A model generated the notes under the pieces. The model worked only from the letters and a program-made list of their open reading frames with translations, ran no database searches and was not told where the DNA came from. The position numbers and the translations under genes are program-made. A stretch of DNA of 64,000 bases, from positions 31,269-95,268 of the IMG/VR virus record IMGVR_UViG_3300003873_000004; one strand, written 5' to 3'. Shown here in pieces: positions 6,135 through 41,835 of the stretch. This DNA comes from a virus. Each line of letters starts with the position of its first letter. Position 1 is the stretch's first letter.

Positions 6135-6263
6135 CTAAGCCATTTTAGTTTCTTTCTAGTATGTTGGTATCAAAAAGAAATTCAAATTGTTTCTAGACAC
6201 ACTCTAGGGGCTAGAATTGTATTAAATAAAGTTCTTGACAAGTACAAAATAATAGTGTAGCAT
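6135..6263 (+). repeat. ~125-bp promoter-bearing dispersed repeat, copy A (others 20789-20912, 24737-24865, 49908-50036, diverged 59755-59879)
   Basis: Shared ...tatcaaaaagaaattcaaat.gtttctagaca..ctctaggggctagaa...aaagttcTTGACAagtaca...TAGCAT. Confidence 0.9.
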
Positions 6264-7920: not shown

Positions 7921-9642
7921 TTGCTAATCATCAAAAGCGTAGAATATCGTAATTTTCTGTCTACTGGTAATGTGCCTATTAAATTGAATTTTGACAGTCG
8001 ATGTACTGGAATCACTGGAAAAAATGGGCATGGCAAGTCGACATTTAATTCTGCCTTGTTCTTCGCTATGTTCGGCAAGACCCTTCGAAAATTGAAGAAA
8101 GAACAGATTGTTAATTCTATCAACAAGAAAGACTTGCTTGTCACACTAGAACTTCGAGACGGCAAGAAAAACTATAAGATCGTTCGTGGTATCAAGCCAA
8201 ACATTTTTGAAATTTATGTCGATGGTATTTTGAGAGAACCCCCAGCGTCAATCAAAGATTATCAAAACTGGCTTGAAAATTCTGTTCTAAAAATGAATGA
8301 AGCTGTAGCAAAGCAATTGATGCTTCTAAACTCGACTTCCTTTATCCCGTTCATGATGTTGCCAGCGAAACAACGTAGAACTGTAGTAGAAGAAATTCTC
8401 GACATTCAAGTTTTCACCACAATTTCAACACTGATTCGTGGTAGATCAACCATTCTTAGCACGCAATATAACGATCTGATTTCAGAAATATCGTTGTTGA
8501 AAAACTCTATCAAGCTAAAACAAGAGCATTTAGCTGACATTAGCGTGAAGAAAGAGACACTAATCAAAGAAAAGCAAGAAAGAATTGTAAGTTTGAAGAC
8601 TGATATTACACGGATTGAATCTGGTATCATAGCAGCAACCGACGAAATCGCATTGAACAATGAGAAAATTTCTGATGCTGCGGCAAAAAGACAAAATAGG
8701 TCAGAACTAGACAAAATCATGACGGAAATTTCAGCAAAGAAATATCGTCTTGAAAAACATACAAAATTCGTACAGAATAATTCGTCTTGCCCTACATGTC
8801 AGCAGGAAATAGACGACAACTTTCGAGCAAATACAGTGAAGGAATCGGCGGAAGAATCAAAATCCCTAGAGACTGCCATAGACAAAGCAACAGAAATGCT
8901 TGACGAATTTGACAGTAGATTAGATGAAATAACAGCAATAGAAAAAAATATACTCAATTTGAACATTGATATTTCAAATAGTCATACCAGAATAGATGCT
9001 ATCGCTGAAAATATACGCGTGATAGAACTCGATTTACGAAATATGTCATCGTCTAATGATGAAAATGATGAATCTATTTTATCTGATATACAAAAAATTG
9101 AAGATCAATTGACGAAAACAAAATTAGAACGGGATGAATTGGTAGATAATACACAATATCTTAGAACTATAAATTCGTTGCTGAAAGATTCTGGCATCAA
9201 GACCAAAATAATCAAGCAGTATTTACCAACGATCAATTCGCTGATTCGCAAGTATCTTGAGATATTAGAGTTCCCTTGTGAGTTTACATTTGACGAAGAG
9301 TTCAACGAGACAATGAAATCACGGTATAGAGACGTATTTTCATATGATAATTTCTCTGCGGGGCAGCGCTGCCGTATAGATTTGGCCTTAATGTTCGCAT
9401 GGCGTGATTTATCAAGGCTTAGAAATTCATCAGCGTGTAATCTTCTTGTGCTAGATGAAATTGGGTCGTCTTCATTAGACGACAATGGTGTGGCCGCGTT
9501 TATGAAAATAGTTGGAAATTTGGATAAAACCAATGTGATTGTTATTTCTCATGATCAAAATATATTCGATTCCGACGCCTTCGACAAGCATCTTACTTTC
9601 AAATTGCAAAATAATTTCACCATTGTCGAAGAAACCTCTTGA
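7921..9642 (+). CDS. 46: recombination ATPase gp46 (Rad50/SbcC-like)
   Basis: GKNGHGKST, CPTC zinc hook, FSAGQ, LDE, ISH. Confidence 0.95.
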   Translation: MLIIKSVEYRNFLSTGNVPIKLNFDSRCTGITGKNGHGKSTFNSALFFAMFGKTLRKLKKEQIVNSINKKDLLVTLELRDGKKNYKIVRGIKPNIFEIYVDGILREPPASIKDYQNWLENSVLKMNEAVAKQLMLLNSTSFIPFMMLPAKQRRTVVEEILDIQVFTTISTLIRGRSTILSTQYNDLISEISLLKNSIKLKQEHLADISVKKETLIKEKQERIVSLKTDITRIESGIIAATDEIALNNEKISDAAAKRQNRSELDKIMTEISAKKYRLEKHTKFVQNNSSCPTCQQEIDDNFRANTVKESAEESKSLETAIDKATEMLDEFDSRLDEITAIEKNILNLNIDISNSHTRIDAIAENIRVIELDLRNMSSSNDENDESILSDIQKIEDQLTKTKLERDELVDNTQYLRTINSLLKDSGIKTKIIKQYLPTINSLIRKYLEILEFPCEFTFDEEFNETMKSRYRDVFSYDNFSAGQRCRIDLALMFAWRDLSRLRNSSACNLLVLDEIGSSSLDDNGVAAFMKIVGNLDKTNVIVISHDQNIFDSDAFDKHLTFKLQNNFTIVEETS

Positions 9643-9721: not shown

Positions 9722-9946
9722 ATGTCTGATATTTTTTGGATAACTAATTATTGTGATCCACATAATCGACACGAAAAAATGAACAGAGAAATTTACGGCG
9801 TGATGCTGAAATATATTGATCATCCACATGAAATGAAATCAATGCAAAACAAATTGTGGGAACTACATGTAGAAGGATATAACGTAAAGCATCTTTTGAA
9901 TGTTATATGCTATCGAAAGTGGTTAGAGAAATATCTCTTGACATAA
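9722..9946 (+). CDS. hypothetical protein
   Basis: AAGGAG SD and upstream TTGACA/TAGACT promoter. Confidence 0.7.
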   Translation: MSDIFWITNYCDPHNRHEKMNREIYGVMLKYIDHPHEMKSMQNKLWELHVEGYNVKHLLNVICYRKWLEKYLLT

Positions 9947-12452: not shown

Positions 12453-13364
12453 ATGGCACAAGAAGTATCAATTACAGATTTTGAAAAGGGCGTTCTTGCT
12501 GAATATGGAACCAACGAATTATGTCGTCGAAAGATTGTTGAGTTTGCTAAGAAATATGATTACCGGGTTCCAAAACAGGTTTGGAATAACAAAACGTCAG
12601 AGAAGCGCGGCGCGACATATATTGTATCGGAACAACAAGTAACCAAGACTCAGACAGTAGATCAGAGTCAGCTAGTTGAAACACCAATAGCGGTAAAACC
12701 AAAGGCTGAAGTCGAAATGGTCGGTGGTATCAAAGCTATCCGTAGTACGGAAACACGTTACACCATCGACAAAGATCCAAACTTCATCCGTTGGGGCAAC
12801 TTTTCAGACTTTCGAGCAATCATCAAAGCAAATCGTTTCTTTCCCACTTTTGTCACTGGGTTGTCTGGTAACGGTAAGACTACAGGAATCGAGCAGGCTT
12901 GCGCGGCAGAGGGTCGAGAATGTATTCGATTCAACTTCACTCGTGAAACTGGTGCGGACGATTTGCTTGGCGGGCTTAGGCTGATTGACGGAGATACTGT
13001 TTTTCAGTATGGTCCGATTGCTGAGGCATATATGCGTGGAGCAATCCTTATACTGGACGAATGTCTAGAAGAAAACGAAGAGGTTCGAGTTGGAAAGGTG
13101 AACGAATGGGTTCCAATGAAACTCAAGGATATGAATTTTGGCCAAACTTACCCTGTAGTGTCATTTAATCAAGATACTGGAAAGTTTGAAAACGATACGG
13201 CTTCTATTATTTCGGATAAAGATGACGATCTTTACGAAGTTGAATTGGAAGATGGTTCGACAGTTGTTGTAAACTCGAAGCATCCGTTTGTGGTTGGCGA
13301 CGGCAAAGAAACCAAAACAATAGAAGATGGACTTATTGTAGGTGCCGAAGTGGTCGTTGCTTAA
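12453..13364 (+). CDS. CobS/MoxR AAA+ ATPase N-part fused to split intein N-half (13062-13361)
   Basis: GLSGNGKT, ILILDE, then CLEENEEV...VNSKHPF (intein blocks A/B), then stop. Confidence 0.92.
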   Translation: MAQEVSITDFEKGVLAEYGTNELCRRKIVEFAKKYDYRVPKQVWNNKTSEKRGATYIVSEQQVTKTQTVDQSQLVETPIAVKPKAEVEMVGGIKAIRSTETRYTIDKDPNFIRWGNFSDFRAIIKANRFFPTFVTGLSGNGKTTGIEQACAAEGRECIRFNFTRETGADDLLGGLRLIDGDTVFQYGPIAEAYMRGAILILDECLEENEEVRVGKVNEWVPMKLKDMNFGQTYPVVSFNQDTGKFENDTASIISDKDDDLYEVELEDGSTVVVNSKHPFVVGDGKETKTIEDGLIVGAEVVVA

Positions 13365-15562: not shown

Positions 15563-15649
15563 TGGCAGGTTGGCGAATGGTTGAAACCGCCCGGCTCATA
15601 ACCGGATTGCGAAAGCACACTGTAGGTTCGAATCCTACCCTGCCGACCA
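15563..15649 (+). tRNA. tRNA with CAT anticodon (Met/Ile2) and long variable arm
   Basis: Acceptor TGGCAGG/CCTGCCG-A-CCA; loop CTCATAA; T-loop GGTTCGAATCC. Confidence 0.85.
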
Positions 15650-15709
15650 ATTGATCCTTGACAATAGCATCAGAATAGTTTAGATTATCAAAATACAAAA
15701 GGAGAACGA

Positions 15710-30076: not shown

Positions 30077-31413
30077 ATGACATTAGAAAAACTAAAACAG
30101 CAGGAGCAGGATTTGACATCGAAGATTTCAAGTCTTAATAATGCTCAAATGGCTAGAAAAATCCTTTAATTTTGGAGGCTTTGGTCGGGAACGACCATTG
30201 TACATCGTGTGAATTGCTGGAAAGCTAAGTCGAAAGATATGCCAATCAGCAGCCAAGCCCACATAGGGAAGGTTCAGAGACTATCCGTAAGGAGTAGGAA
30301 TCAAGTGGTTCCGAAGCGCACGACAACCAGAACGGTTGATGATATAGTCCGATCTTGCGCGAAAGCGTAAGCTGCGAAAGCGAGGCAATAGTAACGTCAT
30401 TGTCTGAACATGTGCTAAATTCCTGTTTTGGTGCCCTAGCATCAAAATATTATAGATATAACAATTCATATATTGCTGAGTCCATAACTACGGCGGGACA
30501 AGTTGGTATCCAGTGGACAATGAGAAAAACAAATGAATATTTGAACCTTATTCTAAAAACTGACGATGTGGATTATACCGTCGGGGCAGACACAGATTCC
30601 GAATATGTTGAATTAAATCAGCTAGTTATGAGATATTTCAAAGATAAGCCAAACGCGACAGATCACGACAAAGTTGAATTTCTTGATCTGTTCTGTAAGA
30701 CCCAGCTCGACCCCGCGATTCAAAAGTCTTGTATTGAGATGAAAGATTATATGAACGCAAGATTAAACAAGCTAGATATGGAAAGAGAAGCCATATCTTC
30801 ACGTGGTTTTTTCACCGCGAAAAAACGGTACGCTCTACTGGTACATGACATGGAAGGCGTCCGCTACGCCAAACCAAAACTAAAAATCATGGGATTAGAA
30901 ACTCAGAAATCTTCTACACCAAAACCATGTAGAGATTTGCTAAAAGATATGATCATGGTAATGTTGACCAAAGGGGAAACAGAAACCCAAGAGTTCATCG
31001 AGAATGCCCATGATGATTTTATTGCTCTTGACATTGGTGAATATGCCGTCCCGCGTGGTATCAATGGTCTAGAAAAATATTGTATCGAAAATGGCAAAGC
31101 TATCAATGGTACACCAGCGCACGCTAAAGCAGCTTTAGTTTACAATATGATGATCAAACGAAAGAATTTACCGCTTGACCCAATCAAATCTGGGGACAAG
31201 TTGAAATATGTTCCACTGAAAGAACCAAATCCTTGTGGATTTCCAATTGTTGGATTCCCGTCACATCTAGGATTGCCAAAAGAATTTGGATTAGATGAAT
31301 ATGTGGACGTAGAAACTGTGTATTATAAAGCATTTTTGAAGCCGGCAGAAGCCATGCTTGGTGCTGTCGGATGGAATGTAGAGAAAACATCTAGTCTGGA
31401 GGACTTTTTCTGA
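30077..31413 (+). CDS. 43: DNA polymerase B C-part (43B), spliced 30077-30166 + 30415-31413
   Basis: Own promoter and GGAGG; spliced motif B RKIL|LNSCFGAL; DTDS; KKRY; KIMGLE..KSSTP. Confidence 0.9.
30167..30414 (+). ncRNA. group I intron (248 nt, no ORF)
   Basis: P AATTGCTGGAAA, Q AATCAGCAG, R TTCAGAGACTA, S GATATAGTCC; exon ends in U pairing with GAGG; terminal G; removal restores the frame. Confidence 0.93.
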
Positions 31414-38240: not shown

Positions 38241-38598
38241 GGGGGTGACTTAGATTCGACCGAGATCAAGATGTTTTAGTAAGCACACAGGAATAGATGG
38301 CGCCTTAATGCCAACAAAGCTCTTAACTGCAGCGAACGCCTCAAATATTTTGCGGGCAGCCGCTTAATCATTTCTGATAGTAATGCCAGTCGTGCTATCT
38401 CATGAAATGTCAAATTTAGACTGGCTAAGTTGATGACGTTTTTTCAAGTCATCGAACGAAAAACATAGAAATGATACGCCATGATCGATTTTGATATATT
38501 TCAGATTGTGGTCAAAGGTTATAAAATATGTCTAAGTGTGTAGAAAGCTTTAATTGACGATGCTCGATACAGGGGTGCAAATCCCCTCACCTTCACCA
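38241..38598 (+). ncRNA. ssrA: tmRNA, tag (A)AANASNILRAAA at 38329-38367
   Basis: 5' GGGGGTGAC..GATTCGAC; 3' AGGGGTGCAAATCCCCTCACCTTCACCA; TAACT before GCA resume codon; tag ends AAA-stop. Confidence 0.9.
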
Positions 38599-38638: not shown

Positions 38639-39187
38639 ATGAAGTCGTTTAATGAATCGTCGTTGTCCAGAGTATGGCAGCATTTCAAAAACGATGATCG
38701 AACTGTCGTTGTTCTAACTTCGTCAAGAGAAGGCATGCTTGACACTGATGTGATCAAAGGAAACAAATATATCGCCGCCAAATTACAAAATGCTGGATTT
38801 GGGTACTTCTTTGTTGAAGGTCATTTCATCGAAAATAAAGGAGATTCAGACGAAGCGAAGGCGAAAGAAGAATCCATTTTTGCCATTGCCGAAAGGGAGA
38901 AATCAAACAAGTTGATTTCTCTAGCGCATGCTTTAGCAAATAGATACAACCAAGACGCTATCATTGTGAAGGAAGGCAAAGGAGACAGTTCCATTTCATA
39001 CTTTTTGAACAAAGATAACACAAAAACGGCACTGAAAGGTAAATTGAGTCCAGGCAAGATTGGTGACTATTATACACGGCTTCATAACAATAAGAAAGCC
39101 AACACTTTTGTTTTTGAATCTGTAAAGCATACAAAAAGTTGGATAGGAAAGGCCGAAGAGTTCACACGAATGAGCAGCGTCACCTAG
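38639..39187 (+). CDS. SAM lyase (T3 SAMase)-like protein with capsid-targeting-like N-terminus
   Basis: VLTSSR...N...L...EGHFIE...EES...LANRYNQDAII. Confidence 0.6.
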   Translation: MKSFNESSLSRVWQHFKNDDRTVVVLTSSREGMLDTDVIKGNKYIAAKLQNAGFGYFFVEGHFIENKGDSDEAKAKEESIFAIAEREKSNKLISLAHALANRYNQDAIIVKEGKGDSSISYFLNKDNTKTALKGKLSPGKIGDYYTRLHNNKKANTFVFESVKHTKSWIGKAEEFTRMSSVT

Positions 39188-39456
39188 AAGTTTGTGAAAG
39201 CGTAAGAATGTAAACTTGTGGTTTACAAAATTGCGAATTGCCAGCGAATAACTACGCGTAGATGAAGAAACGTAAACTAACACATATTTTGAACAGTAAC
39301 AAACAAAATGTTAGAGTGCGAAACAAAGTGCTTGACAAGATCAAAGAAATAGTTTAGACTTATTGTATTGAAAGGGTGAAAATTGTTCAGGTGAACAGGC
39401 GTGCCCGCTGATGGTGGTTCGATTCCTCAAGTACACTCATTTCAGACGAAGGAAGT

Positions 39457-39772
39457 AGTGACGGTAATCGCAAAGTGTGCGGACTGAACGGAACTTCGGT
39501 AGTGAATGTGTCACAAAAGCAAGGGCTGCTCGATGGCCAAATCGAGCGAATAAAGCACGGTAAAATCCCGTATTGGTCGCAGTTTTGTTGATTCTCCCGA
39601 TACGCTTGGACAACAGTTTATCCCATAGTTGTTCAGCGAACCAGATCGACTGCTTAGGTGCAGTGCAAAAGTCAATCTCAGTCCGCACATCGAGAGGTTG
39701 ATTGGAGTTGAGATGTGCCCTATCCCGTCAGGTTATGGGAATGATGGTTCGATGTGGGGTCAAACTGTCATT
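39457..39772 (+). ncRNA. unidentified structured RNA (~315 nt)
   Basis: Closing helix 39457-65/39764-72; 12-bp helix 39476-87/39678-89; several inner hairpins; promoter at 39332. Confidence 0.65.
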
Positions 39773-39850
39773 AGCGTCTGTAGTTTAATTAGAGGACAAA
39801 ACACTTGCCATGAGGTTAGAGATTTGGGTTCGAATCCCGGCATGACGCTG
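39773..39850 (+). tRNA. degenerate tRNA-like element
   Basis: AGCGTC/GACGCT acceptor, TAGTTTAA D-arm start, GGTTCGAATCC; irregular anticodon arm. Confidence 0.5.
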
Positions 39851-40047
39851 ATTATTAAATGAAAACAACGATTATTAGGAGAATAACTAATGTCACAAAA
39901 AGAATACATCGCATGGTTAGAACAGGAATTGTCTAGGTATATTGTTGGTTCTTCTGATACGATGGAAGAAATCGTAGAGAAAATAGATCATGTTCTAGAG
40001 ACGCGAAACGACTTCTTAGAGAACGAAAACTTTGAAGAGGAGTGGTA

Positions 40048-41133
40048 ATGCCAGCATATTGGATAGATAAGAAAGGAAAATTTACAGAATCGAGAGATAA
40101 TCATATTATTTCTATCATTGCGAACCCTAAAGTGTTTGGTTTCACTCTAGCGCAATTGAAAGAAACTTATGTGAAATACGATGAACATTTTGGGGCTGAA
40201 GGCAAAGCGCGACGAGAAATCATCGATGAAGCTATCAGTCGAGGATGGATTAGAGTTCGATTATATCCTAGAACTCACTGGTCTATCACTATCGCTAAAC
40301 TTGACAAGCGTGTTCGCAATGTAATTACTGAATTTTGTCAGAATTTGATTGCTGGTAAATATCCCGCTGTTCGTAATCTCGACCAATATCAACCCGTGAA
40401 ATTTACTGCTGTGAAATCCAGACAGACTAATCAAGATTATACTGTCAAAGAAATAGCTGATGGCGAGCTATTGGACGGGAAGAAGCTGGTTGAAACCCTG
40501 TTTCTTATTGATGATTATTCGGATTTTCTTGAAGAAAGTTCGTTGTCACGTGTATGGAATCAGACCAGAAAGCATTCTGTTGGGACTATTACAGCATACA
40601 GATATGCTCGTGACTGTGGTACTGGTGAAGTTTATACGAAGAACGAGAATAAATCCCGAAATGTTGTGCTTAGAGCAAAACTTCTCAAACTCGGATATTC
40701 TATTACCAAAATCAAAGGAACATATATCGAAAATTATGGTTCATCAAAGGAAATCGAAGTGTCAGAGGAGTCCTTCTTGGTGGTTGATTTGGACGACGAC
40801 GGCAAGCTACGCACTAATCTAATCAAACTCGGAACAGAGTTCGACCAAGATTCTATCACATTTCAAGAAAATTCAAACACGGGATATTTTCTAATTTCGA
40901 CAAATAAATGTGAAAGTGGATATCCGGGTCATGGAAAGATCGGAGTTATCAAGAAGCTTGGCAAAACGATGTTCGGTAAGAAAGGTGAGTTTTTCTCAAA
41001 AGTGAACGGACGGCCATTCGTGTTTGAAGAAGTTGGCGAACATTTGATCAATTTTTCAGATTTAGAAATTTCCGGAAAGCGTGGTGTTGTAGAATGGTCT
41101 AAGAAGAGTGGACAATCTGCGTGTTCGATTTAG
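40048..41133 (+). CDS. two-domain protein with C-terminal SAM lyase-like domain
   Basis: FLEESSLSRVW...ITAYR...NKSRN..L...GTYIE...EESFLV...LGTEFDQDSI; paralogue of 38639. Confidence 0.65.
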   Translation: MPAYWIDKKGKFTESRDNHIISIIANPKVFGFTLAQLKETYVKYDEHFGAEGKARREIIDEAISRGWIRVRLYPRTHWSITIAKLDKRVRNVITEFCQNLIAGKYPAVRNLDQYQPVKFTAVKSRQTNQDYTVKEIADGELLDGKKLVETLFLIDDYSDFLEESSLSRVWNQTRKHSVGTITAYRYARDCGTGEVYTKNENKSRNVVLRAKLLKLGYSITKIKGTYIENYGSSKEIEVSEESFLVVDLDDDGKLRTNLIKLGTEFDQDSITFQENSNTGYFLISTNKCESGYPGHGKIGVIKKLGKTMFGKKGEFFSKVNGRPFVFEEVGEHLINFSDLEISGKRGVVEWSKKSGQSACSI

Positions 41134-41835
41134 CAAAAGAACCAACAACGAAGGAGAAATGAACATGGCGGATGCATCGGGTGCTCCATCAGAACTATTT
41201 TTAGTTGTAAGCAGTAGAGCGACATTGTTCCCTGGCACTATTGGGATCCACACTTACAAAAATTCACGCATTAAAAATGTCAACTGAATCTAATATTAGA
41301 TATTTCGTCTATTCAACAAAAATGCTGGCAGTCGCAACCAATCATCCTTCAACACTAGAAAATATCGCTTGACAAGAGCGTCAAAATAGTTTAGACTTAT
41401 TGTATTGAAAGGGAAAGAAGCGTTCAAAGAACAAGCTTCAACGGTTAGACAAACTAATCACTGGTGAAAGGCCAGGAAACAAAGTGCTTGACAAGATCAA
41501 AGAAATAGTTTAGACTTATTGTATTGAAAGAAGTTAAGGAGATTATATTATGAAAAAATTATCAACAACAAAAAGAATCAAGTGTGAAAATTGTGGGGCG
41601 TTCATTCGTGAAAATCTGATGCCGAAACATAAGTGTAAAGTTTGGCGCGAAAAAGAGCTGGACAAAATCGTAGAACGCATGGAGAAGAAATGAGTCACGA
41701 TTCATGTAAACTTTGTGGATGGGTGGAACCAGAGAACGGTAAAGCTGTGACACGTCGATGCGATCGAGAAGGTTGTCCACAGAAGAAAGAATACCCATTA
41801 ATGAACTGGCTTAAGAAAGCTTTTGTGGAGAAAAG

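Follow-up and report, generated by a model that had tools for sequence, protein, structure and literature searches.

Why would a phage place a copy of its early promoter 520 nt ahead of the first ribosome-binding site? The question is posed by positions 39367-39889 of the 64,000-nt stretch of viral DNA analyzed here (the window), which is taken from a 95-kb IMG/VR virus record, roughly half complete, and covers its bases 31269-95268. The initial annotation, made from the letters alone, had read 39367-39850 as a promoter-driven, unrecognized non-coding RNA, with one large structured domain between two tRNA-like units, set between two genes resembling S-adenosylmethionine (S-AdoMet or SAM) lyases. 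Every sequence element that it named is present, at most 1 nt from where it was placed. We find that the stretch is headed by a member of a promoter family, lacks coding capacity, matches no known RNA family, and contains a core that is conserved in a second strain, with one hairpin preserved by paired changes; the overall fold proposed for it is not confirmed. Transcription, cleavage sites, stability, and any role in trans are what we infer from these features. We regard it as about an even proposition that the stretch forms the untranslated start of an early transcript and carries there a functional non-coding RNA of the tRNA-cluster type, of which T4 rnaC and rnaD are examples.

An early promoter without a nearby gene

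The promoter at 39332 is a genuine family member: a scan of the window showed a cassette that is present, nearly unchanged, in at least 20 copies in the 95-kb record, this one included, a likeness far beyond a match to a consensus. The family has the consensus gcTTGACA-N17-TAGACT-tattgtattgaaag, followed by a Shine-Dalgarno (SD) sequence, and the cassette at 41488 is identical to that at 39332 over 55 nt. Transcription would start at about 39367. Cassette homology runs to 39373/4 and gives way there, to the base, to the unique sequence GGGTGAA, and the promoter cassette is the only part of the region that repeats within the record. Other copies lead to an SD and an ATG in about 20-30 nt, whereas the copy at 39332 meets its first SD only after 520 nt. 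The features that frame the stretch are these:

39320-39373, plus strand: early-promoter cassette, with -35 TTGACA at 39332-39337, a 17-nt spacer, -10 TAGACT at 39355-39360, and the conserved leader TATTGTATTGAAAG.
39877-40048, plus strand: first ribosome-binding site (AGGAG, 39877-39881) and open reading frame (ORF; ATG at 39890, 52 amino acids), followed by the 361-amino acid S-AdoMet-lyase-like gene at 40048-41133.
4409-60439 of the window: cassette family, for example at 9938, 12130, 12386, 14550, 26437, 31641, 39332, 41369, 41488, and 42748, bracketing small accessory modules.

Two further observations concern the cassettes themselves. A second sub-type (gctagaa...aagttcTTGACAagtaca...TAGCAT) occurs at 6235, 20884, 24837, 50008, and 59851. 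Two tandem cassettes lie 119 nt apart within 41369-41540, separated by a short unique spacer (GGGAAAGAAGCGTTCAAAGAAC...) in which no ORF is evident.

Could the 520 nt hide a gene? Between the promoter and AGGAG at 39877 there is no SD, no ORF of the stretch has a ribosome-binding site, and searches of Pfam and PHROG returned no matches for these ORFs. The longest ORF, encoding 83 amino acids on the minus strand (39437-39688), drew only multi-stretch matches to long repetitive proteins from among 1.8 billion representatives. The GC content of 39374-39850 is 0.48, against 0.384 for the window. The lack of an SD or a credible ORF behind the promoter and the raised GC content, both noted in the initial annotation, are confirmed.

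The stretch was also compared with known RNAs by running cmscan against Rfam 15, at gathering thresholds and at E<=10 with relaxed filters, on segments of 64 kb, 2.2 kb, and 0.5 kb. Nothing was found in 39360-39860 at E<=10 beyond a sub-threshold tRNA and a tRNA-Sec-like match. GOLLD, ROOL, RNase P RNA, group I and II introns, and riboswitches, all SAM classes included, gave no match in the stretch; nor did transfer-messenger RNA (tmRNA) in any form, permuted ones included, and the tmRNA and intron modes of ARAGORN yielded nothing credible there. The manA model (RF01745) matched neither 39360-39860 at E<=10 nor any other part of the 95-kb record. As controls, the same scans recover the tmRNA (81 bits) and the group I intron (107 bits) of the window, and the manA model scores 90 bits in a related genome, L028. 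The description of the RNA as unrecognized holds in these Rfam searches, by which the stretch is a member of no described RNA family. Two specific candidates were rejected: a group I intron inside a tRNA, with no intron-model match, no similarity to the window's own intron, and with a T loop of its own in each tRNA-like unit; and a retron msr/msd, with no reverse transcriptase gene nearby.

Conservation in a second strain

Is the sequence behind the promoter maintained? Laying source-metagenome contigs on 39150-40150 revealed a second strain, at about one third of the depth, that aligns with the stretch over 39512-39758. Thirty substitutions (30/222, ~13%) and nine gaps separate the strains at 39512-39733, and 3 of 49 positions (~6%) differ at 39710-39758. 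The gaps in one alignment are +1, +1, +1, -1, +1, +3, and +1 nt, most of them not multiples of three, and the listed core substitutions are distributed 10/10/5 by position modulo 3, without codon periodicity. The neighboring gene (40046-40150) has 19 differences in 105 nt (18%) and no gaps; 9 of the 11 listed fall at third codon positions, about 40% of which differ by our estimate. At ~13% against ~40%, the core therefore appears to be at least three-fold better conserved than the near-neutral third-position sites of the next gene. Conservation within it is patchy: five of seven bases change at 39549-39555, and 39648-39666 is rewritten.

The upstream sequence behaves differently. Thirty second-strain bases are visible 5' of ~39501; they are AT-rich, and 11 of 19 match before the shared GTGAATGTGT (~42% differ). 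The 5' third of the stretch is therefore diverged or replaced in the second strain, and the conserved unit seems to start 3' of the 5' strands of the two long helices described below. We speculate that a TAGAAT word in this upstream sequence is a promoter -10 element directly before the core. At the other end, summed contig depth rises 2-4-fold over a ~60-nt block at 39694-39761 (76 and 47 vs ~19), which suggests that further strains or phages of the sample share just that block.

Helices in the core

Which pairings does the second strain support? The core and the helices considered are as follows:

~39501-39760, plus strand: conserved core, with invariant blocks at 39556-39572, 39592-39608, 39680-39702, and 39704-39740.
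39603-39638, plus strand: best-supported hairpin, GGACAAC (39608-39614)/GTTGTTC (39628-39634), extendable to 39603/39638, with TATCCCA kept in the loop.
39573-39649, plus strand: candidate helix TTGGTC (39573-39578)/GATCGA (39644-39649), enclosing the 39603-39638 hairpin.
39528-39547, plus strand: hairpin GCTCGAT-GGCCAA-ATCGAGC, 7 bp, with arms starting at 39528 and 39541.
39557-39571, plus strand: hairpin ACGG-TAAAATC-CCGT, invariant between the strains while its flanks vary.
39685-39718, plus strand: hairpin GCACATC...GATGTGC, 7 bp with a 20-nt loop and both arms invariant, competing with the 12-bp helix for 39685-39689.
39723-39740, plus strand: hairpin TCCCG-TCAGGTTA-TGGGA, in an anticodon-arm-like position within a 37-nt block identical in both strains.
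39476-39487 and 39678-39689, plus strand: perfect 12-bp inverted repeat TGTGCGGACTGA/TCAGTCCGCACA, matched in 5 of 1000 dinucleotide shuffles (P=0.005).
39457-39465 and 39764-39772, plus strand: long-range 9-bp complement AGTGACGGT/ACTGTCATT, seven Watson-Crick and two G-U pairs.

The structural case is carried by one paired insertion in GGACAAC/GTTGTTC. In the second strain an extra A follows 39609 and an extra C follows 39633; the arms become GGAACAAC/GTTGTTCC and pair perfectly over 8 bp, so that the GACAAC (39609)/GTTGTT (39628) pairing of the initial annotation is supported by compensatory insertions. The hairpin in the present strain includes a plus-strand G-U pair that would be C-A on the minus strand, and the G-U pairs point to an RNA structure of the plus strand. 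The helix enclosing this hairpin is possibly supported too: T39573>G is joined by A39649>C (X1 alignment), turning U-A into G-C, a reading that depends on the alignment, and a rival pairing of 39644-39651 with 39696-39703 is likewise kept. The invariant helices at 39557-39571, 39685-39718, and 39723-39740 are uninformative on pairing. Single changes affect GCTCGAT/ATCGAGC (T39542>C, whose partner A39533 is near the alignment end, in a zone of unlisted differences) and the 9-bp closing helix (A39770>T on the 3' strand, with its partner outside the visible sequence). The pairings CGTATTGG/CCGATACG and ATCTCA/TGAGAT are not maintained. As for the single domain closed by the 9-bp helix and containing the 12-bp helix, its 5' arms lie in sequence that is ~40% different or replaced, and it is not confirmed.

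tRNA-like units

What of the tRNA-like units at the two ends? Three elements recall parts of a tRNA:

39374-39438, plus strand: 5' tRNA-like unit, with a GGGTG/CACTC stem, a hairpin TTGTTC-AGGT-GAACAG, the T-loop word GGTTCGATTCC at 39416-39426, and no anticodon arm.
39741-39753, plus strand: second T-loop word, ATGATGGTTCGAT, matching 39411-39423 at 12 of 13 positions and lacking a complementary 3' strand for the T-stem.
39773-39850, plus strand: 3' pseudo-tRNA, with a 6-bp acceptor stem AGCGTC/GACGCT plus two mismatches and a good T arm, TTGGG-TTCGAAT-CCCGG.

The proposal of tRNA-like flanks survives at the 3' end as a degenerate tRNA and is weak at the 5' end. The 3' unit scores 22.3 bits with the Rfam tRNA model (RF00005, 39775-39848), below the gathering cut-off of 29; ARAGORN passes over it at default settings, at which it reports only tRNA-Met 15563 in the window, and calls it a "possible pseudogene" when relaxed. 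Its T arm, with a GTTCRA loop, stacks on the acceptor stem as in a tRNA, and its 5' part is found, with changes, in the second strain. The anticodon arm is defective: its stem has mismatches, and the Rfam alignment gives it a loop of 6 nt. In Rfam the 5' unit matches just tRNA-Sec, at 16.4 bits (E 1.8-8); ARAGORN needs thresholds lowered to ~60-70% to call it, its T arm meets the acceptor stem only with a bulge, and its conservation in the second strain is doubtful. Neither unit has the 5-bp anticodon stem and 7-nt loop of a tRNA.

Three GGTTCGA words nevertheless fall on the plus strand within 440 nt, spaced 330 and 81 nt, where the window density (19 per 128 kb) predicts ~0.07; we estimate a Poisson probability of ~6e-5. 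Counted on both strands, the word has 19 occurrences in the window against 6.3 expected, and the copies at 13082 and 13254 lie inside a 303-amino acid ORF without an RNA match. Around two of the three words the 13-mer ATGRTGGTTCGAT recurs 330 nt apart, with two copies in the window versus 0.19 expected; compared among themselves, the three units have only this 13-mer in common. The three words, the repeated 13-mer, and the pseudo-tRNA support tRNA ancestry or mimicry for the stretch. The T-loop word at 39741-39753 is also complementary to CGAACCA at 39637-39643. A giant tRNA-like molecule closed by the 9-bp helix was considered and rejected, as the 3' strand of the T-stem is missing and the 5' strands are not conserved.

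A proposed functional RNA in the head of an early transcript

How might such an RNA be made? The cassette promoter would produce a transcript of 39367-39889 that carries the multi-hairpin conserved core (~260 nt) and, directly 3' of it, the pseudo-tRNA at 39773-39850. In the present strain, it would also include the weak 5' tRNA-like fold at 39374-39438 and 5' strands able to pair with the 3' side of the core. Host tRNA-processing enzymes would act on the pseudo-tRNA, with RNase P cleaving at about 39773 and the 3' end trimmed after 39850. The core would thereby be freed as a stable RNA, parted from the mRNA of the 52-amino acid ORF and the S-AdoMet-lyase-like gene.

A number of points weigh against a functional RNA of this kind. 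The comparison is with one diverged strain, seen as difference tables in which differences near alignment ends are hidden, and the whole reading is drawn from DNA sequence comparison. The region allows some 130 stems of at least 5 bp, a number at which chance alone should leave some of them "kept", and little can be built on one-sided pairs; several alternative pairings compete. Over its whole length the stretch has an unremarkable minimum free energy relative to shuffles (z -0.34 on the plus strand, -1.18 on the minus strand). The sole significant sub-window, 39476-39689, is equally stable on both strands (z -3.35 and -3.27), and its interior falls to z -0.6 once the 12-bp arms are removed, leaving the 12-bp repeat as the sole source of the signal. 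That 12-bp helix, perfect here and rare in shuffles, is weakened in the second strain in its inner half, where C39679>A, G39482>A, and C39484>T leave two mismatches and one G-U among six visible pairs. The proposed GCAGTT (39579)/GACTGC (39648) helix is contradicted: both sides are changed in the second strain and are not complementary. The pseudo-tRNA, moreover, may not be an RNase P substrate.

Homologues were also sought in vain. GenBank phages searched with blastn contained none; a 15-mer of a helix arm gave 24 chance matches in IMG/VR and no homologue; and JGI metagenome contigs and GTDB genomes held none. Relatives with a similar neighborhood show no similarity to the stretch, having ordinary tRNAs (L002, L003) or manA (L028) there instead. 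Searching with a gapped three-T-loop pattern retrieved a tRNA array and a tmRNA with an ORF and tRNA-Met, none of them homologous, and a conserved 17-mer gave one GC-rich chance match. The promoter-cassette 20-mer led to one 36.6-kb relative (G001) that has cassettes and lacks the RNA, and neighbor proteins used as IMG/VR queries reached no homologous RNA. A 2.3-kb JGI contig encodes P0002, a protein with 77% identity to the downstream lyase-like protein, and probably carries a homologous RNA.

A bolder version, which we think rather improbable, is that the core and its T-loop modules constitute a new class of phage tRNA-mimic RNA that acts in trans. Its synthesis would fall in the first minutes of infection, together with that of the phage tmRNA and two S-AdoMet-lyase-like anti-restriction proteins, and it could, for example, be a sponge or decoy to which host defense nucleases that target tRNAs, or tRNA-binding or tRNA-processing factors, are drawn. 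T4-type phages have had unexplained stable RNAs (rnaC and rnaD) in their tRNA clusters for fifty years, and phage tRNAs have recently been linked to escape from tRNA-cleaving defenses. A promoter-driven, conserved RNA built partly of tRNA parts, amid anti-restriction genes and near a tmRNA, is a plausible further case of RNA-based host takeover. At present it is a lead, with conservation taken from one partial comparison; with more sequences, the stretch could define a new RNA family.

Alternative explanations

Why invoke a function if the stretch could be the wreck of at least three tRNA genes, left as a functionless long 5' untranslated region whose last acceptor stem and T arm serve at most as a processing site? 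We hold this to be possible but less than probable. It would account for T-loop words 330 and 81 nt apart, the last two at a tRNA-like spacing, and for two units that are below tRNA thresholds and have broken arms. The 95-kb record has one intact tRNA, kin have intact tRNAs beside the same lyase-like gene, and the fold has no energetic signal. Decay does not explain a core between the T-loops that has no tRNA-like match at E<=10 and is at least three-fold better kept than the synonymous sites of the next gene, nor a compensated hairpin with no counterpart among the arms of a tRNA. Units 1 and 3, which most resemble tRNAs, also seem the less conserved, the opposite of what is predicted if just a processing signal had been kept.

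Alternatively, the RNA could stay on the mRNA as a cis-acting leader that tunes translation or stability of the 52-amino acid ORF and the lyase-like gene through alternative pairings, possibly switching in response to a ligand or temperature. No terminator separates the RNA from these ORFs, and within an invariant block ATTCTCC (39591-39597) could pair at every position with GGAGAAT of the SD region (39878-39884), though a 7-nt match to the SD somewhere in 480 nt is not rare by chance (0.03-0.15 by our estimate), and the tRNA-like unit between the two would uncouple them if cleaved. Mutually exclusive partners exist for GCACA(TC) at 39685-39691, namely 39476-39482, 39712-39718, and 39749-39759. 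Kin also hold the manA RNA, a riboswitch candidate, in the same neighborhood (PMC2864571). At 480 nt, however, the stretch is far above the size of known leaders of that type, and no riboswitch family matched, all Rfam SAM classes included. We consider a leader of this kind unlikely.

Very unlikely, in our judgment, is a function of the DNA itself, either as a mobile or recombination module resembling a miniature inverted-repeat transposable element (MITE) and bounded by the 12-bp inverted repeat or as a replication or recombination site between cassettes. The repeat is perfect and has no G-U pairs, both strands are stabilized equally, and the region is GC-rich relative to the phage. It is bracketed by cassettes in a shuffling-prone setting of the promoter-early stem-loop (PeSL) kind (PMC2839356), and the sharp difference of the second strain 5' of ~39500 could mark a recombination breakpoint. 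Of the MITE hallmarks (terminal inverted repeats, target-site duplication, multiple copies), however, only the 12-bp inverted repeat is present. The element is single-copy in the 95-kb record and was found nowhere else, and 39469-39475 and 39690-39696 show no target-site duplication. The second strain keeps the interior and not the 5' arm, the reverse of the pattern of a mobile element, and the G-U pairs of the supported hairpin favor a plus-strand RNA.

A small protein-coding gene on either strand, such as the 83-amino acid ORF at 39437-39688 (minus) or a 77-amino acid ORF at 39629-39862 (plus), is close to refuted: ORFs of 77-83 amino acids are present, but both lack an SD and Pfam or PHROG matches, the protein search gave repeat-type matches only, and the second strain has frame-breaking indels in both, with substitutions that show no third-position bias.

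The source phage and the flanking genes

What kind of phage carries the stretch? Its gp43 polymerase is split and ~40% identical to gp43 of T4-like cyanophages; the source is therefore, by its sequence, a distant T4-type phage without a cultured close relative. At curated thresholds Rfam finds a tmRNA (38241-38598), a group I intron (30157-30371, 107 bits), and tRNA-Met (15563) in the window. The tmRNA is of the one-piece type (81 bits) and lies 0.8 kb upstream of the stretch on the same strand. The tRNA-Met(CAT) at 15563-15649, unusually long at 87 nt, is the sole intact tRNA of the record, with a promoter cassette at 15658 immediately 3' of it.

On both sides the stretch is flanked by genes that match the S-AdoMet lyase family. 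For the downstream gene (40048-41133) the initial assignment is borne out, at 44 bits in the C-terminal half of its 361-amino acid product; the upstream gene (38639-39187) reaches 25.1 bits, under the cut-off of 28. The N-terminal domain of the 361-amino acid protein (~150 amino acids) is fused here to one S-AdoMet-lyase-like paralogue; in L028 the same domain is fused, in P0018 (5001-6014), to the other paralogue type, which stands alone at 38639 in our phage. The lyase-like proteins encoded at 38639-39187 and 40048-41133 and P0018 thus show domain swapping at an ESSLSRVW junction.

Comparison with related phages and known systems

Is a structured RNA at such a place exceptional? The promoter and its setting are reminiscent of PeSL cassettes, found in T4-type phages around accessory modules of plastic genome regions (Arbiol et al. 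2010, PMC2839356). Here, too, accessory modules in plastic regions are flanked by many near-identical, strong early promoter cassettes of the sigma-70 type; the likeness concerns promoter and surroundings and does not extend to the 480-nt RNA.

Among relatives, L002 and L003, the nearest fetched ones with a lyase-like gene, have ordinary tRNAs (Met, Ser, Met) upstream of that gene, and L028, L029, and L031 also encode tmRNAs. In L028 the tmRNA is followed by tRNA-Met (8341-8413), manA (8422-8623, 90 bits), and tRNA-Thr (8625-8697), with gaps of 1-8 nt; the cluster lies downstream of the tmRNA and a lyase-like gene, and tRNA-Asn follows (8341-8861 in all). In L029 and L031 a manA match under the threshold (50 bits) lies near the tmRNA, and tRNAs are present too. 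The manA RNA occurs in T4-like marine phages and is a 5'-untranslated-region riboswitch candidate (PMC2864571), for which a position inside a tRNA array is noteworthy. L028 presents a structured RNA sandwiched between tRNAs near a tmRNA and a lyase-like gene, the setting of our stretch; the two RNAs differ in size and conserved words, and the manA model does not match the stretch. The large structured RNAs often found beside phage tRNAs, namely GOLLD, ROOL, RNase P RNA, group I and II introns, and tmRNA, have models that miss 39360-39860.

The closest parallel in layout is T4 itself, where tRNA-Arg, rnaD (species 2, 119 nt), and rnaC (species 1, 139 nt) abut. The stability and processing of rnaC and rnaD have been demonstrated. 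As in our stretch, an untranslated RNA of a T4-type phage abuts tRNA or tRNA-like genes on one transcript, a likeness of layout only. At its end T4 rnaC has a canonical T arm, GGGTTCGAATCCCGGC, a 16-mer also found at 39826-39841 of the window, and this generic 16-nt T arm is all that blastn of the stretch against rnaC and rnaD returned. The core is two to three times longer than the T4 RNAs, and the "tRNAs" that flank it are themselves defective. Given tRNA-manA-tRNA in L028 and tRNA-Arg-rnaD-rnaC in T4, an untranslated RNA among tRNA or tRNA-like genes on an early transcript is therefore an established layout in this phage lineage.

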